Shown here: positions 20,272-61,058 of the stretch, in pieces | Numbering within the stretch: position 1 is the stretch's first letter | How the letters are laid out: every line of letters begins with the position of its first letter | From: an uncultured Akkermansia sp. | Lineage (GTDB): Bacteria; Verrucomicrobiota; Verrucomicrobiia; Limisphaerales; UBA9464 | Direction of reading: 5' to 3' | Assembly (NCBI GenBank): GCA_964386625.1 | Contig: CAYLTF010000001.1 | Location: forward strand, 1-61,058 | DNA: 61,058 bases | Made by a program: the position numbers and the translations under genes | The notes under the pieces: generated by a model | Databases searched by the model: none | Told to the model about the DNA's origin: nothing | The model's input: the letters and a program-made list of their open reading frames with translations, nothing else

Positions 20272-20359
20272 CGGTTCCATCCCGGTGGCCGCGGCCGGCC
20301 TGGTCCGGGATCTCTCTCCATGCTTCCACGGGGCTCCGGGTCCGTTCAGTCTCCGGGGC

Positions 20360-23971: not shown

Positions 23972-24009
23972 AGGCGCGATGGGTGATCCCATCGCGCCTT
24001 TTTGTTTTT
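23972..24009 (+). terminator. Rho-independent terminator after the PEP-CTERM gene
   Basis: Perfect 12-bp stem aggcgcgatggg/cccatcgcgcct, 4-nt loop, then TTTTTGTTTTT. Confidence 0.8.
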
Positions 24010-24220
24010 GGCGGTCGAGTCCAACCGAAGGACGGCCCGACTCTGTTCATTTCGCGGCGTCCGGTCGACTGCCATGGCCCCGGGGCTGGGATCCGGTCAC
24101 CACGGCCTCCGATGCTGTTCGGCCGAGGTCGGGGTTCACTCCCTTTCGGCGACAGGGTGCACCTCCGCCGGAACGGCGGAATCATTGGACAACCCGGTGG
24201 GTGTCACCTTTGATTCCTCC

Positions 24221-29400: not shown

Positions 29401-29511
29401 TCCCTCATGCCCGAGGGATTGCTCTCCGGATGGTCACCGGAGTCGGTGGCCGACTTGCTGGCGTTCGTGGCCCGAGCCCCGGCCCCGGCATCCTCCGATC
29501 CAAAGCCATGA
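26437..29511 (+). CDS. PVC-type putative membrane-bound dehydrogenase domain, HEAT repeats and a C-terminal c-type haem (CxxCH) domain
   Basis: The N-terminal region (FHLELAASEPLVASPVTMAFDEDGRAFVAEM...DGDGRFD...GDGKAD...WFRPV...GPDGCLYIVDMYREVIEHP) matches the Pirellula/Verrucomicrobium N-terminal dehydrogenase domain. HEAT-like repeats follow (NGWVRETAARLI, DERVRGQAV, SSRVRYRLA, SPRIRTAAI). The C-terminal domain has CASCHRAG and a later SLMPEG. Confidence 0.8.
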   Translation: MNSPAWDSLRWASTALAVVGVCLGAEPTSAPKTRVSYSEAYGKTDKATRVDPGELQRFPPVPADRALETFRIRKGFHLELAASEPLVASPVTMAFDEDGRAFVAEMIDYSERRDETPHAGRIRMLEDVDGDGRFDRSTVFADDLPWPTALICSKGGLYVGASPDLLWLKDTTGDGKADERRVVVSGFGSGVARLNVQALLNSFNWGLDHRLYGATGPNGGQRVAKPGADGPGLDLRGLDFSLDPLTETIRPETGGGQYGLSFDSAGNRFVCSNSDHLQWMAYDRVHATRNPWVSLPSPRVSIAADGPAAEVFRISPDEPWRIVRTRWRISGVVPGMVEGGGRVSGYFTGATGATVYRGDALGPEFADNVFVGDAGGNLVHRKVLHADGAGWVARRPADERDVEFLASRDTWFRPVHFQNGPDGCLYIVDMYREVIEHPWSIPEAIKQHLDLNSGQDRGRLWRVVPENFRRPPARRWSRASTSDLVAALESPNGWVRETAARLIHERQDRSAVPGLARLLQRSTVPLARLHALYSLDGLGALDTVDLLQAALADPDERVRGQAVALAELRVGGSDRDALGLRETLLARVTDPSSRVRYRLAFALGAWNGPGRNEALARLLARDGQQPWFQAAVLSSLANGAGEVLQAVVADPGFLRQSRAGDCLESIATLMGAQADLAEVDRFVDQVVRVEASSTHAPRMVRAFLEAAARSSEPGAFRRAEDRLKGVFRAALDRAASDRGNEADRVRAVELLAHGRPAEVSETLERLLGAASPRIRTAAIQSLGRLTDPGVADRLLKPWKGYGPEDRVAVVAQLAGRVERAQALLAAVERGEVGAADIPAAAVRSLQAHAVPAIAQAALRCLPKEPSAADTLAALQPAIDLVGSADRGIRLYRERCASCHRAGAEGHAVGPDLVTLRTAGKARLLTSIAQPHLEVAPQYIAFAVETADGETHSALIARETPTQVTLRLGGGQELTLERRAVRSMRSSGQSLMPEGLLSGWSPESVADLLAFVARAPAPASSDPKP

Positions 29512-31718
29512 ATTCCGGCGGTTCGCGTTCGGTCGATCTTCTGTTTCCCATGCCCTGGAACCTGCGATTCCTGGCGATCCTCGGATCGCTCCTCCACATC
29601 CACGCCATGGCCGGTGCCGCCGATCCCGATTGGCTCCTCGATCCGTCGCCGTACCGGGCCCGGATCACGGAGCGATCCGATCGCCCGGAACTGGTCCTCG
29701 ACAACGGATTGCTGCGCCGCGTCATCCGCATCGCTCCCAACGCGGCCACCGTGTCCCTGGAGCACGGGGTCACCGGCGAGTCGTTGATCCGGGGAGTGAA
29801 GCCCGAGGCCGTGGTGGAGATCGACGGACAGCGCCTGGAGGTCGGTGGACTGCAGGGTCAGCCCAACTACGCCTTCCTGAGGCCCGAGTGGGAATCGCAA
29901 CTGAAGGCCCGGCCCGGGGCCTTCCGCTACGTGGGGCACCAGGTCGGCGTGCCTCAGGAACGCATGACCTGGAAACGGGTCCGTCATCATGCGCCCGGGG
30001 CCCACTGGCCACCGCGGGGCGCCACCCTGAGGCTCGATTTCGAGGCGCCGCCGTCGCCCGGTTCCGGGCCGTCGCTTCAGGGTCTCCGCATCTCGGTGCA
30101 TTACGAGCTGTATGACGGACTCCCCTGCTACTCCAAATGGCTGACCCTCAGCAACGGGACCGACCGCGCGGTGACGCTCAATCGGTTCTCCAGCGAGGTG
30201 CTGGCGGCGGTCGAGCGGGTGTCCGAGGTGGATGAACTGACTGTCGGACTCACGCCCCCGAACTTCCATGTCGAGACCGACTTGTCCTTTGGCGGGATGA
30301 CCGCGGCCGGGGCAAACCGGCGCTCCTACCGCTGGCTGCCCGACCCGGAGTTCCAATCGCAGGTCAACTACGAGAAGAAGACCCCGTGCCTGCTGGAGGT
30401 GGGCCCCGACCTCGGTCCGGCCCGGTCGCTGGCGCCGGGAGCGACCTTCGAGAGTTGCCGCGCCTGGATCCTGCCGCAGGACAGCACCGACCGGGAGCGC
30501 TGCGGCCTGGCGGTCCGGCGCATGGTCCGGACGGTGGCCCCCTGGGTGACCGAGAATCCGCTGATGATGCACCTGGTCTCGTCGCACGGACCGACGGTCA
30601 CCAATGCCATCGACCAATGCGCGGCGACGGGCTTCGAGATGCTCATCCTCAGCTTCGGCAGTGGTTTCGACATGGAGAACGAGCGTCCCGAGACCTTGCA
30701 GAAGGCCCGGTCCTTCGCCGCCTACGCGCGGAGCCGGGGCGTGGAGATCGGCAGCTATTCGCTCCTGGCCTCGCGCAGCGTCGGCGGCGGTCACGATGTG
30801 GTCATGCCGCCGGGGCTCAAGCCGGTGTTCGGCAACTCGCCCTGCCTCCAGAGCCGGTGGGGCACGAACTACTTCCGCCGCCTCTACGACTTCCACCGAC
30901 AGAGCGGGTTCACCCTGCTGGAGCACGACGGATCCTATCCCGGCGATCCCTGCGCCGCCACCGACCACCCGGGGCACCGCGGGTTGGAGGACTCCCGCTG
31001 GAACCAATGGGTGGAGATCCGCGATTTCTATCGCTGGTGCCGGGCCGAGGGCATCTACCTGAATGTCCCCGACCACTATTTCATGGCGGGTTCCACCAAG
31101 ACCGGGATGGGCTACCGCGAGGTCAACTGGTCGTTGCCGCGGGAGCAGCAGGTCATCCACACCCGGCAGAACATCTACGACGGCACCTGGGAGAAGAGCC
31201 CCAGCATGGGGTGGATGTTCGTGCCGCTCACCGAGTACCAGGGAGGCGGGGCGGCGGCGACGATCGAGCCCTTGTCGGAGCATCTCGACCACTATCGGCG
31301 CATGCTCGAGAGCAACCTCGCCCTGGGCGTTCAGGCCTGCTACCGCGGCCCGCGCCTGTTCGACAGCGAGGCCACCCGGGTGATGGTCAAGTCCCAGGTG
31401 GACTGGTTCAAGGCACACCGCGACATCCTCGAGAGCGACCTCATCCATGGTCGGCGTGCCGATGCCCGGGACCTCGATTGGATGCTCCATGTGAATCCCG
31501 GCTTGAAAGAAAAGGGATTGCTGGTGGTGTTCAACCCGTTGAACGAACCCGTGCGCAAGGTCCTGAAGCCCAACCTTTACTACACCGGGTTGACCCGCAC
31601 GGCGCGGGTGTCCGAGCGCGGGGGCAAGGCCCGGCGCCTGGAGGTGGGACGGGACGGGCGGATCGAGTTGATCGTGGAGGTCCCGGCCCAGGGCATGAAC
31701 TGGTGGGTGATCCAATGA
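29508..31718 (+). CDS. Secreted hypothetical protein with glycoside-hydrolase-like (TIM-barrel, GH36/melibiase-like) architecture
   Basis: Signal peptide. The N-terminal beta-domain (LVLDNGLLRRVIRIAPNAATVSLEH) is followed by a central region (GFEMLILSFGSGFDMEN...LLEHDGSYPGD...) and a C-terminal beta-sandwich. The family call is inference only. Its ATG overlaps the upstream TGA (ATGA). Confidence 0.65.
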   Translation: MNSGGSRSVDLLFPMPWNLRFLAILGSLLHIHAMAGAADPDWLLDPSPYRARITERSDRPELVLDNGLLRRVIRIAPNAATVSLEHGVTGESLIRGVKPEAVVEIDGQRLEVGGLQGQPNYAFLRPEWESQLKARPGAFRYVGHQVGVPQERMTWKRVRHHAPGAHWPPRGATLRLDFEAPPSPGSGPSLQGLRISVHYELYDGLPCYSKWLTLSNGTDRAVTLNRFSSEVLAAVERVSEVDELTVGLTPPNFHVETDLSFGGMTAAGANRRSYRWLPDPEFQSQVNYEKKTPCLLEVGPDLGPARSLAPGATFESCRAWILPQDSTDRERCGLAVRRMVRTVAPWVTENPLMMHLVSSHGPTVTNAIDQCAATGFEMLILSFGSGFDMENERPETLQKARSFAAYARSRGVEIGSYSLLASRSVGGGHDVVMPPGLKPVFGNSPCLQSRWGTNYFRRLYDFHRQSGFTLLEHDGSYPGDPCAATDHPGHRGLEDSRWNQWVEIRDFYRWCRAEGIYLNVPDHYFMAGSTKTGMGYREVNWSLPREQQVIHTRQNIYDGTWEKSPSMGWMFVPLTEYQGGGAAATIEPLSEHLDHYRRMLESNLALGVQACYRGPRLFDSEATRVMVKSQVDWFKAHRDILESDLIHGRRADARDLDWMLHVNPGLKEKGLLVVFNPLNEPVRKVLKPNLYYTGLTRTARVSERGGKARRLEVGRDGRIELIVEVPAQGMNWWVIQ

Positions 31719-45289: not shown

Positions 45290-45658
45290 ATGAACAAGGC
45301 CGCATTGTTTGACAAAATCGAGGGCGAGCAGTTCCGCAAGGAAGCCGCGAAATTCAACGTGGGCGACAGCGTCCGGGTGCACACCAAGGTCGTCGAAGGC
45401 GACAAGGAGCGCATCCAGATCTTCGCGGGTGTGGTGATCGGAGTCCGCGGTCGCGGCTTGAACCAGACCTTCACCGTCCGCCGCATCAGCTACGGCGAGG
45501 GCGTCGAGCGCATTTTCCCGACCCATTCCCCCCGCGTGGAGAAGATCGAGGTCGAGCGTCAGGGCTCGGTCCGTCGCGCCAAGCTGACCTACCTTCGCGG
45601 CCGCATCGGCAAGGGAGCCATGGCGGTCAAGGAAAAGGACACGCTGCTCGCCGCCTGA
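45290..45658 (+). CDS. rplS: 50S ribosomal protein L19
   Basis: [60 protein letters not shown] is canonical L19. Confidence 0.95.
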
Positions 45659-45706
45659 ACGGGCGTCGACGGTCATTGCGCCCCTCGTTCCGGGGGGCTG
45701 CCGAGA

Positions 45707-45740
45707 GGTCCGGTGCGTCATGCACCGGGCCTTTTGTTTT
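45707..45740 (+). terminator. Rho-independent terminator after rplS
   Basis: 10-bp stem ggtccggtgc/gcaccgggcc (one G-U pair), 5-nt loop, then TTTTGTTTT. Confidence 0.6.
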
Positions 45741-45946
45741 GGGTGCGCCCGGCGGGGCCCCCACCAACGCAAGGATCCCGACCGGGGGGGATTCCGTGGT
45801 CCGGGAGGGCGTCCGTGCGACCTCGCGAAAGGTCCTGAAAACGGCCGCCGGCAGGATCGTGGTGTCCGCCGGAAAAACCGGGGGCTTGGGGGTTGACACC
45901 CACCGGTTTTTGAAGTGCTGTGGGACTTCACAATCCCCTCACTTCG

Positions 45947-47308
45947 GTGCTCACGATCCTGGGTCCAAAAAACTCGTCCTGCGGCTTCTGCGACGGCGTG
46001 TCGCGGCGCGGATTCTTGCGCGTCGGCGCGCTGGGCATGGGCGGCTTGGGGTTGTCGTCCCTGCTTCGTGCCGAGGCCTCCGCCGGTCTTCGCCCGGCGG
46101 GCCGCTCCCACAAGGCGGTGATCCTCGTTTTCCTGCCTGGCGGCCCTAGCCACCAGGACATGTTCGACCTGAAGCTCGATGCGCCCGCCGAGATCCGGGG
46201 TGAGTTCAATCCGATCCCCACTTCGGTGCCCGGGTTGCAGATCTGCGAACACCTTCCGCGCATGGCCCGGGTGATGCATCACTGCACGGTGATCCGGTCC
46301 ATGGTGGGCATGGAAGACCGTCACGAGGCGTTCCAGACCTACACCGGGCGACTCAATCGCAACCAACCGCCCGGTGGTTGGCCATCCATGGGGTCCTTGT
46401 TGGCCAAGCTCCAGGGATCGGGCGACCCGGCCATCCCGGCCTCGATCGGATTGGCTCCGAAGATGGGCCATGCCCCGTGGTCCGACAATGGTGTGGCCGG
46501 TTACCTGGGCGCCGCCTACGCGCCGTTCGAGATCAACAAAGGCGGCGGCAAGGACGACATGGTGCTCAACGGCATCACGCTCGACCGCCTGGCCGACCGT
46601 CGGGCGCTGCTGGCCTCGCTCGACGGGTTTCGGCGCGAGGTCGATGCGAGTGGCCAGGTGGCCGGGGCCGACGCCTACACCCGCCAGGCCTTCGGGATCC
46701 TCACGTCCAGTCGGCTGATGACCGCGCTGGACCTCAAGAACGAGGACCCCAAGGTGGTCGAGCGGTACGGCAAGGGCGATCCGCGCAATCGCGACGACGG
46801 CGCACCCAAGCTGATGGAGCAGTTCCTGGTGGCCCGGCGTCTGGTGGAGGCGGGTGCCCGTTGCGTGACACTGGCGTTCAGTCGATGGGACCATCACGGC
46901 GACAACTTCGGTGCGCTCCGCCAAGACCTCCCGTTGCTGGACCAGGGACTCAGCGCGCTCATCACCGATCTTCATGAGCGGGGGCTCGATCGCGACGTGT
47001 CGGTGCTCGTCGCGGGCGAGTTTGGCCGGACCCCCACCATCAACAAAGATGGCGGCCGCGATCACTGGCCTCGGGTGGGCTTCTCGCTCCTGGCCGGTGG
47101 TGGACTCCGACATGGCCAAGTGATCGGTTCGACCGACCGATTGGGCGGCGAGGCCGATTCTCGCCCCACCACCTTTGGCGAGGTCCACGCGACCTTGTAC
47201 CACGCCTTGGGTTTGGACGTGAACAAGGTCACCGTGCCGGACCTGACGGGCCGGCCGCAGTTCCTGGTCGATCCCGGGGTTCAACCGATGAAGGAGCTCG
47301 TCGGATGA
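45947..47308 (+). CDS. DUF1501 domain protein (Tat-signal, sulfatase/phosphatase-superfamily-like), copy 1
   Basis: SRRGFLRVGALGMGG twin-arginine signal, then VFLPGGPSHQDMFDLK, WDHHGDNF and GEFGRTPTINKDGGRDHWP, the typical DUF1501 blocks. GTG 45947 is chosen by alignment with the N-terminus of the paralog. GTG 45920 is the alternative. Confidence 0.85.
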   Translation: MLTILGPKNSSCGFCDGVSRRGFLRVGALGMGGLGLSSLLRAEASAGLRPAGRSHKAVILVFLPGGPSHQDMFDLKLDAPAEIRGEFNPIPTSVPGLQICEHLPRMARVMHHCTVIRSMVGMEDRHEAFQTYTGRLNRNQPPGGWPSMGSLLAKLQGSGDPAIPASIGLAPKMGHAPWSDNGVAGYLGAAYAPFEINKGGGKDDMVLNGITLDRLADRRALLASLDGFRREVDASGQVAGADAYTRQAFGILTSSRLMTALDLKNEDPKVVERYGKGDPRNRDDGAPKLMEQFLVARRLVEAGARCVTLAFSRWDHHGDNFGALRQDLPLLDQGLSALITDLHERGLDRDVSVLVAGEFGRTPTINKDGGRDHWPRVGFSLLAGGGLRHGQVIGSTDRLGGEADSRPTTFGEVHATLYHALGLDVNKVTVPDLTGRPQFLVDPGVQPMKELVG

Positions 47309-47381
47309 CTGCCCATCTCCATTCATCGGGAGCGCCGCTTTTCCGTGAACACGACGGGCTCCTCTCGACGTCTGCCTAGCC

Positions 47382-48728
47382 ATGCTCACCCTCAAAGGAC
47401 CCTCCAGCCGTTTTTGTGACGGGGTTTCCCGACGGAGCTTCCTCCGCATCGGTGGCCTGGGCCTGGGGGCCTTGGGGGGCTTGAGCCTCCCGCAGCTGCT
47501 TCGGGCCGAGGCCGCCTCCGGACTCCGCTCCAACCACAAGGCGGTCATCATGGTGTACCTTCCCGGTGGACCGCCCCACCAGGACACCTTCGATCTGAAG
47601 ATGGACGCTCCGGCGGAGATCCGGGGCGAATTCCGTCCGATCCCGACCACCGTCCCCGGTTTCCAGGTCTGCGAGCACCTGCCGCTCCTGGCCAAGCAGG
47701 CCCAGCGCTATGCCGTGATCCGGTCGATCAGCGACGCCATCGACGATCATTCCGACTTCATGTGCCTGACCGGCCGTCGGAAGGCCAGCCAGCCTCCCGG
47801 GGGATGGCCCACCTTCGGTGCCACCGTCTCACGGGTCCTGGGGGCGGCCAGCGATGCGGTGCCGGCCTTCGTGGGACTCGAACCGCGGATGCAGCACCGG
47901 CCCTACAACGCGGCCAACGCGGGCTATGCCGGGGTCTCGCATGACGCCTTCCGTCCGGCCGCCGACGCCAAGTCGGACATGGTCCTCAACGGCATCACCA
48001 CCGACCGCCTGGCCGACCGGCGTGCGCTGCTGGCCTCGTTCGACCGATTCCGGCGGGAGGTCGATGCCAGCGGGCTCATGTCCGGGGTCGATGGTTTCAA
48101 CCAGCAGGCCTTCGGCATGCTGACCTCGAGCCGGTTGCTCGAGGCCTTGAATGTCGAGAAGGAGCCCGCCGCCGTGCGGGAACGCTACGGCAAGGGCGAT
48201 GCCAAGGTGCATGGTGATGCGGCCCCGATGCTCAACGAGCAGTTCCTGGTCGCCCGTCGACTGGTCGAGGCCGGGGCCCGCTTCGTGACCGTGGCCTACG
48301 GTTTCTGGGATTATCACGGCAACAATTTCGGCAATGCCCGCAATGATCTTCCGCTGCTGGATCAGGGCTTGAGCGCCCTGATCGCCGACCTGCATGACCG
48401 GGGCCTCCAGAACGACGTGAGCGTCATCGCCTGGGGCGAGTTCGGCCGTTCGCCCACGATCAACAAGGACGGCGGTCGCGATCACTGGCCCCGCGCCAAC
48501 TGCGCGCTCTTGGCCGGTGGCGGCATGAAGGTGGGGCAGGTCATCGGGGCCACCGACCGTCTGGGGGGCGAACCCAGCGAGCGCCCTGTCCAGTTCGGCG
48601 AGGTCTTCGCCACGCTCTACCAGAACCTGGGGATCGACGTGAACAAGGTCACCTTGCCCGACCTGACCGGCCGTCCCCAGTTCCTGGTGCCTGAGGGGTG
48701 CCAACCGATGCGCGAGTTGGTGGGTTGA
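47382..48728 (+). CDS. DUF1501 domain protein, copy 2 (tandem paralog)
   Basis: Collinear with copy 1 over its whole length. By eye, roughly two thirds of residues are identical, and there are long identical blocks such as DMVLNGIT.DRLADRRALLAS, EQFLVARRLVEAGAR, LPLLDQGLSALI and TINKDGGRDHWPR. Confidence 0.9.
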   Translation: MLTLKGPSSRFCDGVSRRSFLRIGGLGLGALGGLSLPQLLRAEAASGLRSNHKAVIMVYLPGGPPHQDTFDLKMDAPAEIRGEFRPIPTTVPGFQVCEHLPLLAKQAQRYAVIRSISDAIDDHSDFMCLTGRRKASQPPGGWPTFGATVSRVLGAASDAVPAFVGLEPRMQHRPYNAANAGYAGVSHDAFRPAADAKSDMVLNGITTDRLADRRALLASFDRFRREVDASGLMSGVDGFNQQAFGMLTSSRLLEALNVEKEPAAVRERYGKGDAKVHGDAAPMLNEQFLVARRLVEAGARFVTVAYGFWDYHGNNFGNARNDLPLLDQGLSALIADLHDRGLQNDVSVIAWGEFGRSPTINKDGGRDHWPRANCALLAGGGMKVGQVIGATDRLGGEPSERPVQFGEVFATLYQNLGIDVNKVTLPDLTGRPQFLVPEGCQPMRELVG

Positions 48729-48747
48729 AACCGGGTTGAAGGAAACG

Positions 48748-51321
48748 ATGCCTATGTCCTCTTCACAGCATTCCACGCAATCACCCGGTGCGACCCTGGG
48801 TGTGACGTCCGCACTCACCGGCGGCACCTCGGGCAAGGCTCGGGCGCTTGCGTTGGCCGGGGTTTTGGCCACCGCATTGGCCGGGTTCTGCGGGGTCTCG
48901 GCTGCGACCCTCGAGATCCATTACCGGAATGGGGCTGGCGAGCTGGTCCTCGATTCCCAGGATGCCCGCCAACAGTTGCTGGCGACCGTCGATGGCCACC
49001 GGGATGTGACCCGCGAGGTGAGTTGGTCTTCGGAGCCTGCCGGGGTGGTGCGGCTCGATGCGTCCGGACGGGTCATTCCCGTGGCCGATGGTTCCGCGGT
49101 GATCTCGGCCAAGGGCCGTGACGGCGCGACGGCGAGATTGCCCGTCCGGGTGGTGCATGCGGGGCAGCCCGCGCCGCTGCACTTCGCCAATCAGATCGTC
49201 CCCATCTTCACCAAGAACGGCTGCAATGGCGGAGGCTGCCACGGCAAGGCCGCGGGTCAGAACGGTTTTCGACTCTCGCTCCTCGGGTTCGAGCCCGACG
49301 AGGATTACGAGCACCTGGTTCGCGAGGCCCGGGGGCGGCGGTTGTTCCCGGCGGATCCGCCTCGCAGCCTCCTGGTGACCAAGGGAACGGCGGAGATGCC
49401 GCATGGCGGGGGCAAGCGCCTGGAGATCGGTTCCGACGATTACCGTCGACTGGTGCGCTGGATTTCCCAGGGGATGCCGGTGGGCAAGACCAACGCGCCG
49501 ACCGTCCAACGGGTGGAAGTGTTCCCCTCGGCCCGGACGCTGGCGCTCAATGGCGAACAGCAGTTGGTGGTGACGGCGCATTACACCGACGGATCCACCG
49601 AAGACGTCACCCGCAGTTCTCTCTTCGAGCCCAACGACAAGGACATGGCCTCGGCCGATGCCAATGGTCTGATCAAGATCTTCAATCAGCCGGGAGAGTT
49701 CGCGGTGATGGTCCGCTACCAGGGGCAGGTCGCGACCTTCCGGGCGACCATTCCGCTGGGGGCCCCCGTGGACCGGTTGCCGCCGGCCAAGAACTTCGTC
49801 GATGAGCTGGTCTTCAAGCAGCTCAAGCAGGTCGGGATGCCGCCCAGCGAGGTCTCCGACAAGTCGACGTTCCTGCGCCGGGTCACGCTCGACATCGCCG
49901 GTCGACTTCCCAGTCCCGAAGAGGTCCGAGCCTTCGAGGCCGACACGGCTCCGGGCGACCGGGATCGCGTGATCGATCGACTGGTGGCCTCGACCGACTA
50001 CGCCGACTACTTCGCCGGCAAATGGGCGGCGCTGCTCCGCAACAAGCGCACCGAGCCGAAGCAGGCCCGGGGCACCATCGCCTTCCATGCCTGGGTGCGG
50101 GACAGTCTGGCCGTCAACAAGCCCTACGACCGGTTCGTCCGCGACCTGCTGACCGCCTCGGGCGAGGTCTCGGAGAATCCGCCCGTGGCCTGGTACCGGC
50201 AGGTGCGGACCGTCCAGACCCAGCTCGAGGATGTCTCGCAGTTGTTCCTCGGCCAGCGGATGCAGTGCGCCCAGTGCCACCATCATCCGTATGAGAAGTG
50301 GAGCCAGGCCGATTACTGGAGTTTCGGTGCCGCGTTTTCCCAGGTCGGCTACAAGCCCGGGGCCCAGCCCGGGGAGGAGATCGTCGTGCACCGCCGGGGC
50401 GAGGCCAAGGCGACCAACAAGAAGAACGGTCAGGCCGTGAAGCCGGCGGCGTTGGGCCAGTCCGCCTTCGAGCTGGAGGTCGATGACGATCCCCGGGTGT
50501 TCCTGGCCGACTGGATGACCTCCCCGAAGAACCCCTGGTTCGCCAAAGCGCTGGTCAACCGCTACTGGAAGCATTTCTTCGGGCGTGGCCTCGTCGATCC
50601 CGAAGACGACATGCGCGACACCAATCCCCCGAGCAATCCCGAGCTGCTCGATGCCTTGGCGGCGCACTTCGTTGCCAGCGGTTTCGACCTCAAGGACCTG
50701 GTGCGGACCCTGGCCCGCAGCACCACCTACCAGTTGAGCGCGATCCCCAACGCCCACAACGCCAAGGATCGCCATCACTTCTCGAGGTTCTACCCCCGCC
50801 GCCTCCCTGCCGAGGTGCTGCTCGACTCGGTCAACACGCTCACCGGCGGACGCAGCCAGTTCGAGGGCTTGCCCGCCGGCACCCGGGCCGTCTGCCTCCC
50901 GGACAACAGCTTCAATGCCCAGAGCTACTTCCTGACGGTGTTCGGTCGGCCCGAGGGCAGCAGCGCCTGCGAGTGCGAGCGGAGCATGGAGGCCTCGCTC
51001 AGCCAGAGTCTTCACCTGCTCAATTCCAAGGACATCCAGGCACGCCTCAGCGCCGACGACGCGCGTCCGGCCCGGATCCATTCCGACTCCCGGCCCGACT
51101 CGGTGAAGCTGGCCGAGCTGTATCAGTTGGCCTACTCGCGCCCGCCGTCGGCGGATGAGGTGCGGCAGGCCTCGGAGTACCTGGCACGCAAGGCGGCGGC
51201 TTCCAAGCCGGGCAAGGATGCGGCCGAGACCGAGACCCTGAAGGCCAAGGCCCGCCGCGAGGCCTGGGAAGACCTCACCTGGGCGCTCCTCAACACCAAG
51301 GAGTTCCTCTTCAACCACTGA
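48748..51321 (+). CDS. Big_2-like Ig domain, DUF1549 and DUF1553 protein
   Basis: Signal/anchor, then an Ig-like domain (VTREVSWSSEPAGVVRLDASGRVIPVADGSAVISA), then a GCNGGGCHG motif. The DUF1549 block reads FVDELVFKQLKQVGMPPSEVSDKSTFLRRVTLDIAGRLPSPEEV. QCAQCHHHPYEKW follows. The DUF1553-type C-terminus reads CECERS...SQSLHLLN. ATG 48748 (preceded by aagga) is preferred over TTG 48736. Confidence 0.85.
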   Translation: MPMSSSQHSTQSPGATLGVTSALTGGTSGKARALALAGVLATALAGFCGVSAATLEIHYRNGAGELVLDSQDARQQLLATVDGHRDVTREVSWSSEPAGVVRLDASGRVIPVADGSAVISAKGRDGATARLPVRVVHAGQPAPLHFANQIVPIFTKNGCNGGGCHGKAAGQNGFRLSLLGFEPDEDYEHLVREARGRRLFPADPPRSLLVTKGTAEMPHGGGKRLEIGSDDYRRLVRWISQGMPVGKTNAPTVQRVEVFPSARTLALNGEQQLVVTAHYTDGSTEDVTRSSLFEPNDKDMASADANGLIKIFNQPGEFAVMVRYQGQVATFRATIPLGAPVDRLPPAKNFVDELVFKQLKQVGMPPSEVSDKSTFLRRVTLDIAGRLPSPEEVRAFEADTAPGDRDRVIDRLVASTDYADYFAGKWAALLRNKRTEPKQARGTIAFHAWVRDSLAVNKPYDRFVRDLLTASGEVSENPPVAWYRQVRTVQTQLEDVSQLFLGQRMQCAQCHHHPYEKWSQADYWSFGAAFSQVGYKPGAQPGEEIVVHRRGEAKATNKKNGQAVKPAALGQSAFELEVDDDPRVFLADWMTSPKNPWFAKALVNRYWKHFFGRGLVDPEDDMRDTNPPSNPELLDALAAHFVASGFDLKDLVRTLARSTTYQLSAIPNAHNAKDRHHFSRFYPRRLPAEVLLDSVNTLTGGRSQFEGLPAGTRAVCLPDNSFNAQSYFLTVFGRPEGSSACECERSMEASLSQSLHLLNSKDIQARLSADDARPARIHSDSRPDSVKLAELYQLAYSRPPSADEVRQASEYLARKAAASKPGKDAAETETLKAKARREAWEDLTWALLNTKEFLFNH

Positions 51322-51324
51322 CGC

Positions 51325-53697
51325 ATGCCGCCCGATTCCTGGGTCCTTCGGATCGCCCTCGGATGGGTCATGGTCGCGACGGCCTGTGCCCAGTTGCCCA
51401 TGGCCCGCCTGATGTCGGTGTTCCCGCCGGGCGGCGCATCCGGTTCCTCGGTCGAGGTGACGGTGGGCGGCTCCGACCTCGACGAGGCGGTCGGCCTCGT
51501 GTTTTCCGATCCGCGCGTTTCCGGTGCGCCCATCCCGGGTGCCACCGACCGCTTCCGGGTCGCCTTGCCGCCCGGACTGCCCGAGGGCCTGATCGATGTG
51601 CGCGTGCTCGGGCGCTACGGCGTCTCCAACCCGAGGGCGTTCTCGGTCGGGCCGGCGATGCCTGAACTCGCATGGAAGCAGTCGCCGTCGTCCCCGGCGC
51701 AGGCCTTCGATCTTCCCCTTGAGACCCTCGTGCAGGGGCGTTTGGGGGCGCAGGAGGTTCTCTGGTTCCGCTTCCAGGGCGAGGCGGGCCAGGCTCTCGG
51801 AGCCCGCGTCGAGGCCCGTGACCTCGACTCCCGCCTCGTGCCCGATCTCGCGCTCACCGACGCGTCCGGCAACGAACTGGCCCGGGTGCGCCGGCGCGAG
51901 TGGTTCGATTTCCGGCTGCCCGCCCGGGGTACCTATCTGCTGCGTCTGAACGACTCGCTCTACCAGGGCGGCGATACCCATGGATTCCGCCTGCGGATCA
52001 CCGCCCGCCCGCGCGTGGCCTTCGCGGTGCCGACGGTGTTGCAAGCGGGTCGTCCTCAGAAGGTGACCCTTTACGGCCGCAGACTGCCTGGCGGCGCCCC
52101 CTCGACGGTGCTCGGCCCCGACGGAGAGGCCTGGGAGCAGCGCGAACTGGAGATCGTCGCACCGGGCGAACCCGACCCCTCGTCGGCCTCCGTGGTGCCC
52201 CTTGCCGCACCGGCGTCCACACCGCTGGCGTCGAGTGCCTGGTTGTGGCGCGGTTCCGTCGCTTCGGAGTCGCAGCCGGCGGTCGCACCCCTCGAGCCCG
52301 TGGCTTGGGCGCTGTCCTCGTTGCCGGTGATCGCGGCCGCTCCCACAGGCCTGGTCTCGGTGGTTCCTCCCTGCGAGTTCTCGAGCCTGTTCCCGCTTCG
52401 GGGGCGCGCCAGCGGGGTCGTTTTCGAGGCGAAGGCCGGCGAGGTCTTCTGGGTCGAATTGACCTCCGAGCGCTGGGGCTTTCCGGTCGACCCCATGGCG
52501 GTGGTCCAACGGGCCAAGCAGGGCGGGTCTCCGGGCGATTCCGTGGCCTGGGTCGACGTCCTGGAGTTGGGGGACACCGATCAGAATCTCGGCGACCGGG
52601 AGTTCCGCACCGTGCATCGGGACGCTGCGGCCCGTTGGAAGGTCGCCGATGATGGGCGTTATCGCATCGTGGTCCGCGACGGCTTCCGGCGCGGGGACGG
52701 CCAGGCCCAGTTCCCGTACCGGCTGAGCCTCCGACGTGAGTCCCCGGATTTCCAGTTGGCGGTCTTCCCGATGCCACCGCCCCGGGCGGGCGAGGATCGC
52801 AGCATCGCGGTGGTTCCACCGGCGCTGCGGCGCGACCAGACCGTCGCGTTTCGGGTGGTCGCCTTCCGGCAGGACGGTTTCGACGGAGACATCGAACTGG
52901 GTGCGACCGACCTGCCGACCGGAGTGAGTGCTTCCACCACGCGCATCGCCGCCGGGCAGAACACCGGTGTGATCCTGCTGAGCGCCGACTCCCGGGCCAC
53001 GGGCGCCGCCCCGTGGCGGGTGACGGGCAAGGCGACCCTCGGATCCGGGACGCTGACCCGCACCGCTTCGCCAGCCTCGGTGATCTGGCCTGTCGCCGAC
53101 TACAACAATGAGAATCCGGTGGTGCGTCGTTCCCGCGGTGCCTCGCTGGCCGTGGTGACCCAGGAGTCGGCCCCGGTGACACTCCGAGTGGGAACCGTCG
53201 CGCCCTCGGCCGACGGGAGCGTCTTCAAGCTCCCGCTGCACCTCGAGCGGCGGGGCGAATTCCAAGGGGCTTTCAACCTCAAGGCCGGGGGCCATGCCGC
53301 CCTCGAGAAGGCCAAGGAAATCAACGTCCCCGAGAAGGTCACGAATCTGGTGGTGGAGTTGTCGCTGGGGGAGGCGCGCCTGCCCGTGGGAGCCCACACG
53401 CTCTGGTTGCAGGGCAGCGTGGCCGGCAAGTACCGGCAGGCGCTCGAAACCCTGGCGTCCGCCGAGGCCGGTCTGAAGGCGGCCGAGCAGGCCCTGGCTT
53501 CGGCCGGAGCGGGAGACAAGACCGCGGCCGAGGCTCGGAAGAAAGAGGCCGAAGCCCGCAAGAAAGCTGCCGAGGAGAAGGCCAAACCTCGGGATGTCAC
53601 CGTCGTCGTCTGGTCCGAGCCTTTCACCGTCACGGTCGGTGCGACCAACGCCCCGGGCACCCGTGGGGGATCCCCCGCGAAGGAGACCAAGCCATGA
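51325..53697 (+). CDS. Secreted multi-domain protein (pre-peptidase-C-terminal/Ig-like beta-sandwich repeats) with a Lys/Ala/Glu-rich C-terminal helix
   Basis: 790 aa with a signal peptide and high third-position GC. Repeated beta-rich modules are present (e.g. VEVTVGGSDLD...; WFRFQGEAGQALGARVEARDLDSRLVPDLALTD...GTYLLRLND resembles PPC domains). The C-terminus contains AEARKKEAEARKKAAEEKAKPRD. Domain naming is inference. Confidence 0.7.
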   Translation: MPPDSWVLRIALGWVMVATACAQLPMARLMSVFPPGGASGSSVEVTVGGSDLDEAVGLVFSDPRVSGAPIPGATDRFRVALPPGLPEGLIDVRVLGRYGVSNPRAFSVGPAMPELAWKQSPSSPAQAFDLPLETLVQGRLGAQEVLWFRFQGEAGQALGARVEARDLDSRLVPDLALTDASGNELARVRRREWFDFRLPARGTYLLRLNDSLYQGGDTHGFRLRITARPRVAFAVPTVLQAGRPQKVTLYGRRLPGGAPSTVLGPDGEAWEQRELEIVAPGEPDPSSASVVPLAAPASTPLASSAWLWRGSVASESQPAVAPLEPVAWALSSLPVIAAAPTGLVSVVPPCEFSSLFPLRGRASGVVFEAKAGEVFWVELTSERWGFPVDPMAVVQRAKQGGSPGDSVAWVDVLELGDTDQNLGDREFRTVHRDAAARWKVADDGRYRIVVRDGFRRGDGQAQFPYRLSLRRESPDFQLAVFPMPPPRAGEDRSIAVVPPALRRDQTVAFRVVAFRQDGFDGDIELGATDLPTGVSASTTRIAAGQNTGVILLSADSRATGAAPWRVTGKATLGSGTLTRTASPASVIWPVADYNNENPVVRRSRGASLAVVTQESAPVTLRVGTVAPSADGSVFKLPLHLERRGEFQGAFNLKAGGHAALEKAKEINVPEKVTNLVVELSLGEARLPVGAHTLWLQGSVAGKYRQALETLASAEAGLKAAEQALASAGAGDKTAAEARKKEAEARKKAAEEKAKPRDVTVVVWSEPFTVTVGATNAPGTRGGSPAKETKP

Positions 53698-56600
53698 TGT
53701 GCCGAATTGTTTCATCCCGTCGCCCGGTTTGCTTCCCATGGGTACGGACCCTCGGGTTTGCCGCGGCGTTTTTCGCGATCTCCGGCGGGTCTTTCACTGC
53801 TCTCGCGGCCGTCACCCCATTGGCCATTGACCGCCAGGCGACCGGCGCTCCGCAGACGGTGGGTTTCCAGAAGGACATCCTCCCGATGTTCCAGGCCAAC
53901 TGCCTCCCTTGCCACAACCAGACCCGGGCCAAGGCCGGCCTGAACCTGGAGACGCCGGCGACCCTCCTCCGCGGGGGCGATACCGGGCCCGGCGCGGTCG
54001 CCGGAAAACCGGCGGAGAGTCTCGTCCTCAAATCCGCCGCGCATCAGGTGGAAGACCTGGTCATGCCGCCGGCGGGCAACAAGTCCAATGCCCGCAACCT
54101 GACCCCCCAGGAACTCGGCCTGCTCTGGCGCTGGATCGAGCAGGGAGCCAAGGCCGATCAGGCCGTCGTGGTGGAGCCCGCCTGGAAACCCATCTCCCCG
54201 GACTGGAAATCCTGCTTCGCCGTGGCTCTCGACTCGGAGGGTGGCACCGTGGCCGTCGCACGGGCCAACCGTGTCAGCGTGCTCGAGTTGGCCACGGGCC
54301 GTACGCTGGGTCGGCTCGAAGACCCCGCGCTCGACGGAGCCACCCAGCGGGATGTGGTCGGGGCCCTGGCGTTCAGCCCCGATGACCAGTGGTTGGCGAC
54401 CGCGGGGTTCCGCGAGGTGCGCCTTTGGCAGCGCCGGCCGGTGACGGTCGAGCCGGTGCTTTCCATTCCGCCCAAGGCGGCCTGGGTGGCCGCGGCCTTT
54501 TCGCCGGACGGCTCGGTATTGGCCTCCGTGACCGCCTCGGGACAGCTCGAGATCCGATCGAATCCGCTGGCCCGGTTGCAGGGGGCTTGGGCCTTGAAGC
54601 TCGCCTCTCCGGCCGGTTCGGCTCCGGTTGTCCGTTTCCTCTGGTCCACGGACTCCCGTCGGCTGGCGGTCTCATCCGGTCGCGAGTGGTGGAACGTCTC
54701 GACGACCGATCCCCGGTTCTCGCTGGCCAAGGCCCCACCGCTGCCGGCGGAACCGACCGGAATGACCTGGGTGCCGGGTGACGACCACTGGTGCATCACC
54801 TACGGCACGAACCATCCACCCCAGCGGATGCGCAGCACGGGCGGTGGCGCCCGCGGCGAGGACTGGGTCCTGGAGCCTGCACCCGAAATCCCGGCGACCG
54901 CGAAGGTCTTGGCTGCGGATCCCTCGGTGCTCGGATCCGTCTGGGGCGCGGATGGGCAGGGGGCGGTCCAACGGTGGGGCAAGGCTGCGGCCGGTCCCCG
55001 GGAGCTTTCGTCGCCGGTGCGTGCGTTGCTCTGGGACCGCTCCGGATCCAACGGAGTCGCGGTCCTGAACGACGGCTCGGCCAAGGCGTTCTTCGGTGAT
55101 CGCGCGCCCACCCATGGTCCCCGCCTGGCGGGCGATCCACGACTCGCGGCGGATGCCGCCCGTGAGGAACTGGAACTGGCCCGGGCCCGACTCGAGTCCA
55201 CGTTGGCCGCCAACCGCATCCAGGAGGCCCTCGGAGCAGTGACCAATGCACAGTCCGCGCTGGGCAAGGCCCGCGAGAAACGCGACCAGGCCGGCAAGGC
55301 CCTGGCGGAGCGTCAGAAGGAATGGGCCGATCAGGAGGCCCTGGTCGCTTCGGCCACCCGAGATCGGGATGCCGCCGCCGCCGAATTGGCCAAGGCCCAG
55401 GCCGAGGCCAAATCCGCGGGCGAGGCGGTGCAGCAGGCCGCCGCCGTCGCCAAGTCCTCGCCCGAGGCCGCCTTGAAGGCCGTCGACGATCTCCTGGCCA
55501 AGTCCGAGGCGCTGGGGCGGCGCAAGTCCGCCCTCGAGCGCGCCGAGGCCGAGGTGACGCCCCGCCGCAAGAAGGCCGAGGAGCAGTTGGCTGCGGCGCA
55601 GAAGAAATCCGGGGAACTCAAGGGGCCGCTCGAGAAGGCCCGTGTGCTGGCCGAAGGCGCCGCCCAGGATGTCATCCTGTCGGAAAAGGCTGTCGCCGCG
55701 GCCACCGATGCGGTGGCTTCGGCCCAGGCCGAGGAACGCCAGGCCGCCGAACGGAGCGCCCGTTCCGAGGCCCGCCTTTCGGCCGCCCGTTCGGCGCGCG
55801 ACCGTTCCGCATCCCGCGCTTTCCGGGTCGCCGCGTTGTCCGCTTCCGGGGCATCCCTGCTGACGGTGGGGGAAGACGGCCTCTGGACCCGCTGGCATCC
55901 TGCCATCGGCCGGGCCGTCGAGACCTTCGCCGTGGGCGGGGGCGAACCCCTGGCACTCGTGGCCCTTGGAGACGACGAATTCCTCGCGGCCTTCCCCAAC
56001 GGCGTCAGCCGCATCCGGACGACCCGCCCCTGGTTCCTGCGGCAACGGATCGCGGGCACCGCGGCCGCGCCCGCCTTCGCCGACCGCATCAACGCCCTGG
56101 CCTTCAGCCCGGATGGCACGCTCCTGGCCACCGGCGGCGGCGAACCTTCACGCTCCGGGGAACTCAAGCTGTGGAAGCTGCCCGAAGGCACGCCGGCCCT
56201 GGACCTGGGTGCGCTCCACAGCGATGCGGTCACGGCCGTGGCCTTCTCGCCACGCGGCGACCGGTTGGCATCGGCGGGTGCCGACCGCTTCGCCCGCATC
56301 ACGGGCCTGCAGACCAACGCAGCGCGCTTCAACCTGGAGGGCCACACCCATCATGTGATCGGGGTGGCCTGGTCCCCGGATGGCGGCGTCCTTGCGACCG
56401 CCGGGGCCGAAGGCACCGTCAAGCTCTGGAATCCCCGGACGGGCGAACGGCGCAAGAATGTCGACGGCTTCGGCAAGGAGGTCACCGGGCTCCAGCCGGG
56501 GGGACAAGCCCTGCGGTTCGTGGCCATGAGCGGCACCGGCAAGGGACGAGTGTTCAAGGCCGATGGCGAGGCGGTCCGGGATCTGGCCTCCGTGCCCGAC

Positions 56601-56720
56601 TACCTCCAGGCCCTCGCGGTGAGCCGCGACGGCCGCCGGGTCGTGGGCGGCGATGACCGGGGCATCGTTCGTGTCTGGGATGCCGAGAGCGGTCAATTGC
56701 TCCAGAGCTGGGAGCCGTGA
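53694..56720 (+). CDS. Planctomycete-type cytochrome c (PSCyt1) domain, WD40 repeats, a long coiled coil, and a second WD40 propeller
   Basis: Signal peptide. FQKDILPMFQANCLPCHNQTRAKAGLNLET...LTPQELGLLWRWIEQGA is the PSCyt1 signature with CxxCH. WD40-like blades occur before and after an Ala/Glu/Lys/Arg-rich segment of about 230 aa. The C-terminal blades are clear (AFSPDGTLLATGG, AFSPRGDRLASAG, AWSPDGGVLATAG, VRVWDAESGQ). Its ATG overlaps the upstream TGA. Confidence 0.85.
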   Translation: MMCRIVSSRRPVCFPWVRTLGFAAAFFAISGGSFTALAAVTPLAIDRQATGAPQTVGFQKDILPMFQANCLPCHNQTRAKAGLNLETPATLLRGGDTGPGAVAGKPAESLVLKSAAHQVEDLVMPPAGNKSNARNLTPQELGLLWRWIEQGAKADQAVVVEPAWKPISPDWKSCFAVALDSEGGTVAVARANRVSVLELATGRTLGRLEDPALDGATQRDVVGALAFSPDDQWLATAGFREVRLWQRRPVTVEPVLSIPPKAAWVAAAFSPDGSVLASVTASGQLEIRSNPLARLQGAWALKLASPAGSAPVVRFLWSTDSRRLAVSSGREWWNVSTTDPRFSLAKAPPLPAEPTGMTWVPGDDHWCITYGTNHPPQRMRSTGGGARGEDWVLEPAPEIPATAKVLAADPSVLGSVWGADGQGAVQRWGKAAAGPRELSSPVRALLWDRSGSNGVAVLNDGSAKAFFGDRAPTHGPRLAGDPRLAADAAREELELARARLESTLAANRIQEALGAVTNAQSALGKAREKRDQAGKALAERQKEWADQEALVASATRDRDAAAAELAKAQAEAKSAGEAVQQAAAVAKSSPEAALKAVDDLLAKSEALGRRKSALERAEAEVTPRRKKAEEQLAAAQKKSGELKGPLEKARVLAEGAAQDVILSEKAVAAATDAVASAQAEERQAAERSARSEARLSAARSARDRSASRAFRVAALSASGASLLTVGEDGLWTRWHPAIGRAVETFAVGGGEPLALVALGDDEFLAAFPNGVSRIRTTRPWFLRQRIAGTAAAPAFADRINALAFSPDGTLLATGGGEPSRSGELKLWKLPEGTPALDLGALHSDAVTAVAFSPRGDRLASAGADRFARITGLQTNAARFNLEGHTHHVIGVAWSPDGGVLATAGAEGTVKLWNPRTGERRKNVDGFGKEVTGLQPGGQALRFVAMSGTGKGRVFKADGEAVRDLASVPDYLQALAVSRDGRRVVGGDDRGIVRVWDAESGQLLQSWEP

Positions 56721-60172: not shown

Positions 60173-60401
60173 GCTCCGGGTCGAGGGAACGATCCGCTCC
60201 ATGCCCCGGCGTCCGGTTTTGATGCGCCTTCGGGTGCCGTCTTCCCGTCGTGGCTCCGCAGGTGACTCCGGTCACCGGTAATGCCACAGTTCCACGACAG
60301 CAAGGTGGGGTTTGCACGGAAGCTGCTAAGCTGCGGCCGAGCCTTGTTGAGTTGTCTCCGTCCTGCCCTTCCGGAGGGTGCGATGGGGCATACCTTTCAT
60401 C

Positions 60402-61058
60402 ATGAACTGGAATTCCCGAACTGGAGCGACCGTGGGTCGCTGGGTGTTGATGGCGATCTTGACCCTGCTGCCGGCCCGTGCCGGCAGCCTCCTGCGGGAG
60501 GTCTACAGTGGCATCCCCGGGGTGACCATCGACGCGCTGACCAACAGCCCGGCCTACCCGAATTCGCCCTCGTCCACGAACCTGATCACCGACCTCTTCG
60601 AGGCTCCGACCGATGTGGCCGACAATTACGGGCAACGCCTGCGGGGCATCCTCACGGCCCCGCTGACCGGCAAGTACACGTTCTGGATCGCCGGCGATGA
60701 TTACGCCTCGTTGTATCTGAGCACCGATGCCAGCCCGGAGAAGCGCCAATGGATCGCCGGCGTCCCCGGTTGGACCAGTTCCCGGGAGTGGGGCAAGTTC
60801 CCTGAACAGCAGAGCGCCCCGATCTCCCTGGTGGCCGGTTCACGATACTACATCGAGGCGCTCCAGAAAGAGGAGGGCGGCGGCGACAACCTCGCGGTGC
60901 GCTGGGTGCGCCCCGATGGCGTCGATGAGGGACCGATCCCCCTGGATTCCTTCGTCGCCTGGGGCCTCAAGCCCGAGGCTCCGCGGATCTCGCTCCAACC
61001 CGTCCCGGTGACGGTCGACGAACGGGGTGCCGCCACCTTCACGGTCGGATACGACAAT
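60402..61058 (+). CDS. PA14 domain-containing secreted protein (partial; continues beyond the window)
   Basis: This ORF is not in the track because it has no stop in the window. My translation from ATG 60402 reads MNWNSRTGATVGRWVLMAILTLLPARAGSLLREVYSGIPGVTIDALTNSPAYPNSPSSTNLITDLFEAPTDVADNYGQRLRGILTAPLTGKYTFWIAGDDYASLYLSTDASPEKRQWIAGVPGWTSSREWGKFPEQQSAPISLVAGSRYYIEALQKEEGGGDNLAVRWVRPDG... The YGQRLRG...TGKYTFWIAGDD...L..G..Y.IE....E..G.D...V.W pattern is the PA14 fold signature. Confidence 0.8.
   Translation, partial: MNWNSRTGATVGRWVLMAILTLLPARAGSLLREVYSGIPGVTIDALTNSPAYPNSPSSTNLITDLFEAPTDVADNYGQRLRGILTAPLTGKYTFWIAGDDYASLYLSTDASPEKRQWIAGVPGWTSSREWGKFPEQQSAPISLVAGSRYYIEALQKEEGGGDNLAVRWVRPDGVDEGPIPLDSFVAWGLKPEAPRISLQPVPVTVDERGAATFTVGYDN

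Follow-up and report, generated by a model that had tools for sequence, protein, structure and literature searches.

A five-gene DUF1501/PSCyt/WD40 cluster in an uncultured verrucomicrobial contig as an instance of a previously described four-family module

Among bacteria of the Planctomycetes–Verrucomicrobia–Chlamydiae (PVC) group, a four-gene cluster was described by Kamneva et al. (2012, Genome Biol Evol, PMC3542564) as the "most complex" type of DUF1501 locus. With Verrucomicrobium spinosum as the type example, this module comprises a DUF1501 protein, in some cases bearing a twin-arginine signal, and a protein that has a signal peptide, one or more weak PPC domains and conserved regions that are otherwise uncharacterised; a PSCyt1/Big_2/PSCyt2/PSD1 protein and one combining PSCyt1 with WD40 complete the set (PMC3542564). 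Its function was unknown; the authors suggested electron transport and membrane targeting, reported a correlation of 0.852 with intracellular membranes and proposed a role connected with the cell plan of PVC bacteria (PMC3542564). Here, we analysed a cluster of five same-strand genes (g1 to g5) in a 61,058-nucleotide (nt) stretch of DNA from an uncultured Akkermansia sp. (contig CAYLTF010000001.1), referred to below as the window. We conclude with high confidence that the cluster is an instance of the Kamneva module and hence of a system type already described, because its domain set matches that module item by item and the families are co-located across PVC species.

The encoded families are labelled A (DUF1501; g1 and g2), B (g3), C (g4) and D (g5), and they are the same four that make up the described module, which in both cases are spread over Verrucomicrobia and Planctomycetes. 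The locus differs from the published description in carrying two DUF1501 paralogs, A1 and A2, though this proved to be the commonest state of the cluster, and in that Pfam misses the PSCyt1 domain of g3 and the PPC domains of g4, which were recovered by hhalign, from orthologs and from structure. An earlier note on this DNA, made from the letters alone, had singled the cluster out as a candidate for an undescribed system, which the report of the same four-family cluster by Kamneva et al. contradicts. The features it regarded as unusual, i.e. DUF1501 genes that come first and are duplicated, an Ig-like domain in the large protein and two coupled downstream genes, turned out to be the norm for this cluster type, and its description of the genes as built entirely from PVC-specific domains was overstated, given that Big_2, WD40 and PPC-like domains also occur outside the PVC group.

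Two further kinds of locus invite comparison. Generic pairs of DUF1501 with a PSCyt1/PSCyt2/PSD1 (DUF1549/DUF1553) gene are found by the dozen in single genomes of Planctomycetes and Verrucomicrobia, and share with the present cluster the A+B pairing, the twin-arginine translocation (Tat) signal on DUF1501 and the CxxCH motif in PSCyt2. In contrast to these pairs, B here combines two Big_2 domains with a PSCyt1 variant whose CX4CH is invariant, in place of domains of the carbohydrate-binding module (CBM) type, and the A/B subfamily stands out by its unusual degree of conservation and its linkage to C and D. Operons of DUF1800 and DUF1501 in Proteobacteria and others, noted beside bacterial chitin synthases (PMC5122149), likewise combine a Tat-signal DUF1501 protein with a large uncharacterised protein, but the partner belongs to another family, no CxxCH has been reported for it, and genes for PPC and WD40 proteins are absent. 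He et al. (2017, PMC5615132) catalogued PSCyt genes in freshwater Verrucomicrobia, some of them with CBMs and near sulfatases, and stated their function to be wholly unknown. Later papers citing the Kamneva module bring no biochemistry, and no functional study of DUF1501, DUF1549, DUF1553, PSCyt, DUF1800 or DUF1552 was found in the literature.

The five genes (Table 1), together spanning positions 45920-56720, were recovered on the same strand with the domain content that had been proposed for them, as judged by Pfam, and all five open reading frames (ORFs) showed coding-type codon composition, with a G+C fraction at third codon positions (GC3) of 0.82–0.86. The latter is of use here since the window is rich in GC (~66–70%), and long spurious ORFs are therefore common. 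The tight spacing of the genes was likewise recovered: g1 and g2 are separated by 73 nt, g3 and g4 by 3 nt, and the stop of g4 overlaps the start of g5 in an ATGA. The gap between g2 and g3, previously given as 19 nt, amounts to 7, 19 or 25 nt depending on whether g3 starts at TTG 48736, ATG 48748 or ATG 48754, the true start probably being one of the two ATG codons. For g1, the true start is probably GTG 45947, giving a predicted protein of 453 amino acids (aa), because this agrees with both the paralog g2 and the orthologs of 453 aa predicted at three other loci (L001, L084 and L085). None of the five proteins matched an NCBIfam model. The genes probably form a single operon. A terminator-like hairpin downstream of rplS probably marks the upstream edge of the transcription unit, and no hairpin of comparable strength was found within the five-gene cluster; a promoter scan returned no sigma-70-type promoter, a result that is uninformative for this phylum.

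Table 1. Coordinates of the cluster genes, of the upstream features in the window and of the third DUF1501 paralog in related loci
Feature	Coordinates	Strand	Basis or remark
g1 (A1), DUF1501	45920..47308	+	Pfam DUF1501 (PF07394), E=1e-85
g2 (A2), second DUF1501	47382..48728	+	Pfam DUF1501 (PF07394), E=3e-82
g3 (B), Big_2 + PSCyt2 (DUF1549) + PSD1 (DUF1553)	48736..51321	+	Pfam
g4 (C), secreted 790-aa beta-sandwich chain	51325..53697	+	AlphaFold2 model; no Pfam family
g5 (D), PSCyt1/WD40/coiled-coil-like/WD40, 1008 aa	53694..56720	+	Pfam
Terminator-like hairpin, 16-pair stem followed by a T-run	45702..45736	+	3' of rplS
rplS (ribosomal protein L19)	45290-45658		Upstream neighbour
Third DUF1501 paralog, locus L057	15133-16527		
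Third DUF1501 paralog, locus L063	14696-16099		
Third DUF1501 paralog, locus L060	3621-5000		
Third DUF1501 paralog, locus L067	6944-8344		
Third DUF1501 paralog, locus L073	8610-10013		

The conservation of the arrangement was assessed by a scan for relatives of g4 with one genome per species, which returned at least 446 relatives. Of these, 80 loci were fetched and combined with three previously fetched ones into 81 distinct loci, which were analysed by tblastn and ORF extraction, with a threshold of at least 50% identity for B orthologs. The loci belong to Limisphaerales/Pedosphaera-type, Chthoniobacterales and Verrucomicrobiaceae members of the Verrucomicrobiota as well as to Pirellulales. 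D lay directly downstream of C in 62 of the 68 loci with enough flank, the C stop and the D start overlapping by 4 nt in 37 of 65. C was immediately preceded by a B ortholog in 46 of 62 loci, and in 21 of 52 cases B and C stood exactly 3 nt apart. Upstream of B, two DUF1501 copies were the commonest finding (20/37 loci), followed by one copy (9 loci), none (7 loci) and three (1 locus). When only the 43 loci with full flanks were considered, all four families were present in 26, and the exact order A, A, B, C, D was kept in 18. The five genes are thus co-conserved beyond the generic DUF1553/DUF1501 pair, and the outcome that the earlier note had named as speaking against its reading, linkage of that pair only, did not materialise. 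The cluster is best described as two separable conserved pairs, A(+A)+B and C+D, usually joined in one array.

The pairs also differ in how strongly their sequences are conserved. Between the window and Chthoniobacterales or Pirellulales, B was 54–60% and A 57–70% identical, while C and D were 32–43% identical over the same distances (C 32–37% between phyla). The A and B orthologs that are linked to C and D constitute one distinct, highly conserved subfamily with an invariant CX4CH. In one Pirellulales locus (L074, 5271-7172), a heptahaem protein with seven CxxCH motifs and tetratricopeptide repeats (TPR) was encoded directly upstream of B-C, with A and D not nearby; as it was seen at no other fetched locus, it was rejected as a fifth partner. 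A few contigs with the cluster (e.g. L014 and P0153) go under the names Kapaibacterium, Limnocylindria or Akkermansia muciniphila. Errors in the binning or labelling of metagenome-assembled genomes are the probable cause, because the genes on these contigs are 50–90% identical to Verrucomicrobia (Limisphaerales-type) orthologs.

The two DUF1501 proteins of the window are 64% identical to each other. Both carry a twin-arginine motif, SRRGFL in g1 (nt 46001-46018) and SRRSFL in g2 (nt 47427-47444), which was verified by translation, and the two arginines (R29 and R30) were invariant among 25 relatives. The conserved motifs of g1 are GGPSHQD, WDHHG and GRDHW, whereas the g2 lineage is fixed for GGPPHQD and WDYHG in place of the first two. 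Across the window and loci L001-L083, the lineages of A1 and A2 are set apart by 26 fixed differences, among them S77P (within GGPSHQD) and H325Y (within WDHHG), and in two-copy loci the order of the genes is kept across orders, the first always being g1-like and the second g2-like. The two genes are ancient positional paralogs. Since S77P and H325Y fall inside conserved motifs, the comparison suggests that one of the two paralogs may be catalytically altered or dead. A third, more distant paralog (38–41% identity) is present in some Chthoniobacterales and Verrucomicrobiaceae loci, either between B and C or just past D (Table 1). A small ORF with a PDDEXK_3 (nuclease-fold) domain is inserted among the DUF1501 genes in L001 (5255-5671) and L084 (6131-6574), where it resembles a selfish or mobile element that has entered the operon.

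We take DUF1501 to be placed in the alkaline-phosphatase clan of Pfam, a superfamily that includes sulfatases and nucleotide pyrophosphatases/phosphodiesterases. Both paralogs gave weak, sub-cutoff matches to Phosphodiest (PF01663; E=0.003–0.005), and hhalign aligned DUF1501 with the C-terminal half of a sulfatase encoded in the window, at a non-significant E=0.078. That sulfatase is a 935-aa protein (20285-23092, + strand) in which PF00884 and SGSH_C domains are fused to a GDSL lipase/acylhydrolase domain. The likeness to the superfamily consists of these weak matches, which fall in the C-terminal half of the fold, and of the conserved Asp/His motifs WDHHG and GRDHW, which resemble metal-ligand motifs. 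It differs in that the CxPxR (formylglycine) motif of sulfatases was not found in the DUF1501 sequences.

The g3 protein consists of a signal segment, a Big_2 domain, a PSCyt1-like domain with the CX4CH motif, a second Big_2 domain, PSCyt2 and PSD1, the second Big_2 being identified by structure and a PDB match, not by Pfam. The two haem-type motifs noticed previously in g3 were verified by translation: CNGGGCH at aa 163-169 (nt 49222-49242) and CAQCH at aa 511-515 (nt 50266-50280), the latter within CAQCHHHP. Both are strictly conserved, with CN[GSA]GGCH and CA[QRE]CHHHP in 50 of 50 B orthologs, and a CECER motif in PSD1 was invariant in an alignment of 46 B sequences. Although Pfam misses it, the PSCyt1-like domain (aa 147-219) aligned with the PSCyt1 domain of g5 (hhalign E=1.3e-4, probability 54%), and it is followed by P222-H223-G224, which is invariant in the orthologs and a candidate for a distal axial ligand; the AlphaFold2 model of g3 has a predicted local distance difference test (pLDDT) score below 50 at the motif. 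The model as a whole has a pLDDT of 76, with two Ig-like domains and 500 C-terminal residues that are helical. Homologs of g3 number in the thousands, and identity is at least 64% for every one of the top 120. Foldseek matches of the model were confined to the Big_2 domains, with no solved counterpart of the helical PSCyt2/PSD1 part among the 50 matches listed, and sequence and profile searches of the PDB gave Ig-like matches and marginal ApcE-like ones only.

The latter concern a short segment of g3 (aa 383-447, nt 49882-50076), which gave marginal phmmer matches (E 0.02–0.2) to the phycobilisome core-membrane linker ApcE. DUF1800 proteins are helical, and PSCyt2 and DUF1800 may share a helical motif. 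The same resemblance to ApcE has been remarked on for DUF1800 proteins in a 2026 paper (PMC12981691).

The call of a beta-sandwich repeat protein for g4 was borne out by an AlphaFold2 model based on a 76-sequence alignment (pLDDT 91.2; predicted template modelling score, pTM, 0.88), which shows a chain of beta-sandwich domains, two of them PPC-like, and a C-terminal helical hairpin (aa 707-752). Neither Pfam nor a Foldseek search with the model detected a catalytic domain. The protein has no significant Pfam match itself, but faint matches to PPC (PF04151) are found in many of its orthologs, and Foldseek paired the model with the solved PPC domain 5sv5 at a template modelling (TM) score of 0.69 on the target. 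At least 103 homologs were listed, all from Verrucomicrobia and Planctomycetes-type metagenomes, and when all of 1.84 billion cluster representatives were searched, the relatives numbered 904 at E<=1e-30 and 4726 at E<=1e-3; g4 thus represents a large family without a Pfam model of its own. Apart from the PPC domain, Foldseek gave only generic multi-beta-sandwich proteins. A relationship to macroglobulin/thioester proteins was considered and rejected, as the matches to alpha-2-macroglobulin, TEP1 and C3/C5 reached TM scores of only 0.1–0.16, and the presence of only two Cys residues and the lack of a CxEQ motif also count against it.

In g5, PSCyt1 was located at aa 70-128 (PF07635, 52 bits), with the verified motif CLPCH (aa 70-74, nt 53901-53915), and WD40 repeats (PF00400, 105 bits) at aa 150-480 and aa 795-1005, with an Ala/Glu/Lys-rich helical, coiled-coil-like region at approximately aa 480-720 between them. 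A CxxCH motif, one per protein, was present in 60 of the 62 D orthologs, and an MPP sequence is conserved about 50 residues past it. Cytochrome cd1 nitrite reductase and quinohaemoprotein alcohol dehydrogenases are redox enzymes that combine a cytochrome c domain with a beta-propeller. Like them, g5 is exported and fuses a small c-type cytochrome-like domain to propellers, but its propellers are canonical, scaffold-type WD40 propellers in which no signature of d1-haem or pyrroloquinoline quinone was detected, and its coiled-coil-like spacer of ~240 aa varies in length; the resemblance is architectural only. As had been proposed for all five products, export signals accompany the Tat motifs of g1 and g2 in the rest of the cluster: inspection of the sequences showed N-terminal hydrophobic, signal-like segments in g3, g4 and g5.

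Given a co-conserved and closely packed cluster, export signals and strictly conserved CxxCH-type motifs, the exported multiprotein assembly suggested by the earlier note is a reasonable reading. We put the probability at roughly 0.55 that the cluster is a Kamneva module whose products form an exported, probably periplasmic, complex in which a metallo-hydrolase-like enzyme works together with haem-motif partners; confidence in the mechanism is low. In such a complex, all five products would be exported, the two DUF1501 proteins via Tat and the other three via Sec-type signals. The DUF1501 proteins would be metalloenzymes resembling the alkaline-phosphatase superfamily that acquire their fold and their metal in the cytoplasm before Tat export. 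They might form a heteromer of a catalytic subunit (A1) and a degenerate or altered one (A2), a proposal made because A1 keeps GGPSHQD and WDHHG while two of these positions are fixed for Pro and Tyr in A2. B would be the dedicated partner of the DUF1501 proteins, as in every generic pair, docking the enzyme and carrying one or two redox or metal centres (the PSCyt1-like CX4CH and the CxxCHHH of PSCyt2). C and D, as a second and translationally coupled pair, could provide a scaffold and a relay for electrons or a ligand, possibly via their helical segments. The substrate would be a constant core component of the periplasm or envelope rather than a variable nutrient polymer, which is favoured because A and B are strongly conserved, no CBM is present and the neighbouring genes are housekeeping ones.

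Several points weigh against this interpretation. C and D occurred without A and B in 11 of the 43 fully flanked loci (e.g. L002 and L003), and A and B were found alone at L085; as the two modules are separable, the four parts need not make up a single obligatory machine. The proposed split into a catalytic A1 and a degenerate A2 presupposes that S77 and H325 would lie in the active site, phmmer and profile searches of the PDB returned no relative of DUF1501 with a solved structure, and every link of DUF1501 to the alkaline-phosphatase superfamily falls below significance. The AlphaFold2 confidence for g3 is lowest precisely at its three Cys motifs (aa 163-184, 511-519 and 737-750). Haem binding by PSCyt1 and PSCyt2 is putative, and the activity of every member, co-transcription, complex formation and subcellular location are predictions.

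The separability of the pairs could be taken to mean that two independent systems, DUF1501 with PSCyt2/PSD1 and the PPC protein with PSCyt1/WD40, often happen to be neighbours and share neither machine nor function. Besides the loci with only one of the pairs, this would account for several Pirellulales loci that have B-C without a nearby D or A, and for L084, found in a look-up anchored on B, where the full set is present but two opposite-strand genes part B from C. On the other hand, B directly precedes C in most loci of two phyla, often with the same 3-nt gap, adjacency that persists over such distances normally reflects functional coupling, and the A and B proteins linked to C/D represent a subfamily of their own, marked by the CX4CH; we thus regard mere neighbourhood as unlikely. 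Somewhat less probable still is that the cluster is not redox-active, its Cys/His motifs binding a structural or catalytic metal or forming disulfides instead of attaching haem, so that the products would make up a hydrolytic, binding or structural complex of the envelope, the PVC cell-plan role of Kamneva et al. included. In favour of this, the attachment of haem to PSCyt domains is putative, CX4CH departs from the canonical motif, CHHHP and CECER resemble sites for metal, the model is unconfident at exactly these residues, and the reported correlation with intracellular membranes (PMC3542564) would fit. That correlation may merely track phylogeny, however, and the canonical CxxCH of g5 PSCyt1 is retained in nearly all orthologs and followed by an MPP that would fit a Met as the sixth ligand. 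The N-terminal domain of g3 is homologous to this domain, and all of the proteins are exported, as attachment of c-type haem requires.

A third possibility, the capture and degradation of complex or sulfated polysaccharides with DUF1501 as a sulfatase-like enzyme, follows what He et al. (PMC5615132) suggested for PSCyt genes generally and was also raised by the earlier note. PPC and Ig-like domains can bind polymers, and the CBMs and nearby sulfatases of some PSCyt genes speak for it (PMC5615132). At this locus the link finds no support: the only accessory domains are Big_2 and WD40, no CBM is present, and amid housekeeping neighbours no glycoside hydrolase or sulfatase lies within ~20 kb, the nearest sulfatase being the one described above, ~23 kb away. 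DUF1501 does not have the sulfatase CxPxR, and the 54–70% identity of A and B across orders and phyla exceeds what would be expected of substrate-specific catabolic paralogs, making this the least probable of the alternatives. Returning to the exported complex, its most far-reaching form would make A1/A2-B-C-D the conserved core of the DUF1501/PSCyt/PSD expansion, in which a heteromer of alkaline-phosphatase fold, with one active and one degenerate subunit, is obligatorily coupled to c-type haem, including the CX4CH site, and to a beta-sandwich/WD40/coiled-coil scaffold, acts on a constant envelope or periplasmic substrate and has no characterised analogue. In this full form, we consider the proposal doubtful.

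For a specialist in PVC bacteria the locus is unsurprising, as it adds no new kind of system. DUF1501, PSCyt and PSD are, however, among the largest uncharacterised families in Planctomycetes and Verrucomicrobia, both of which are abundant in soil and water. Judging by its invariant Cys/His motifs and the 54–60% identity of B across phyla, the four-family cluster is the most constrained member of the expansion. It is thereby the best-constrained entry point to function, offering a defined set of subunits, which suggests a stoichiometry, and an A1/A2 asymmetry that can be mutated; its chemistry, if solved, would probably account for paralogous pairs that run into the hundreds in each genome. 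What is new here is the invariance of the CX4CH and CAxCHHHP motifs in 50 of 50 orthologs, the A1/A2 paralogy with its fixed differences, the division into two separable pairs and the size of the g4 family.

The cluster is flanked upstream by the housekeeping genes for FtsK, GlgC, TrmD and L19, and downstream by a creatininase-family gene and a transporter of the major facilitator superfamily. Proteins of the DsbD family are a source of periplasmic reductant, which is used in cytochrome c maturation, and a DsbD-type thiol:disulfide interchange protein (DsbD_N, DsbD_TM and a thioredoxin-like domain) is encoded elsewhere in the window (24002-26350, + strand). It is followed by a 1024-aa protein with DUF7133 and HEAT repeats (26437-29511, + strand), which is overlapped by a 901-aa ORF (29013-31718, + strand) of good GC3 and without a Pfam family, so that the gene boundaries in this region are doubtful. 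At 60351-61058 (+ strand), a gene for a PA14-domain protein is truncated by the end of the window.

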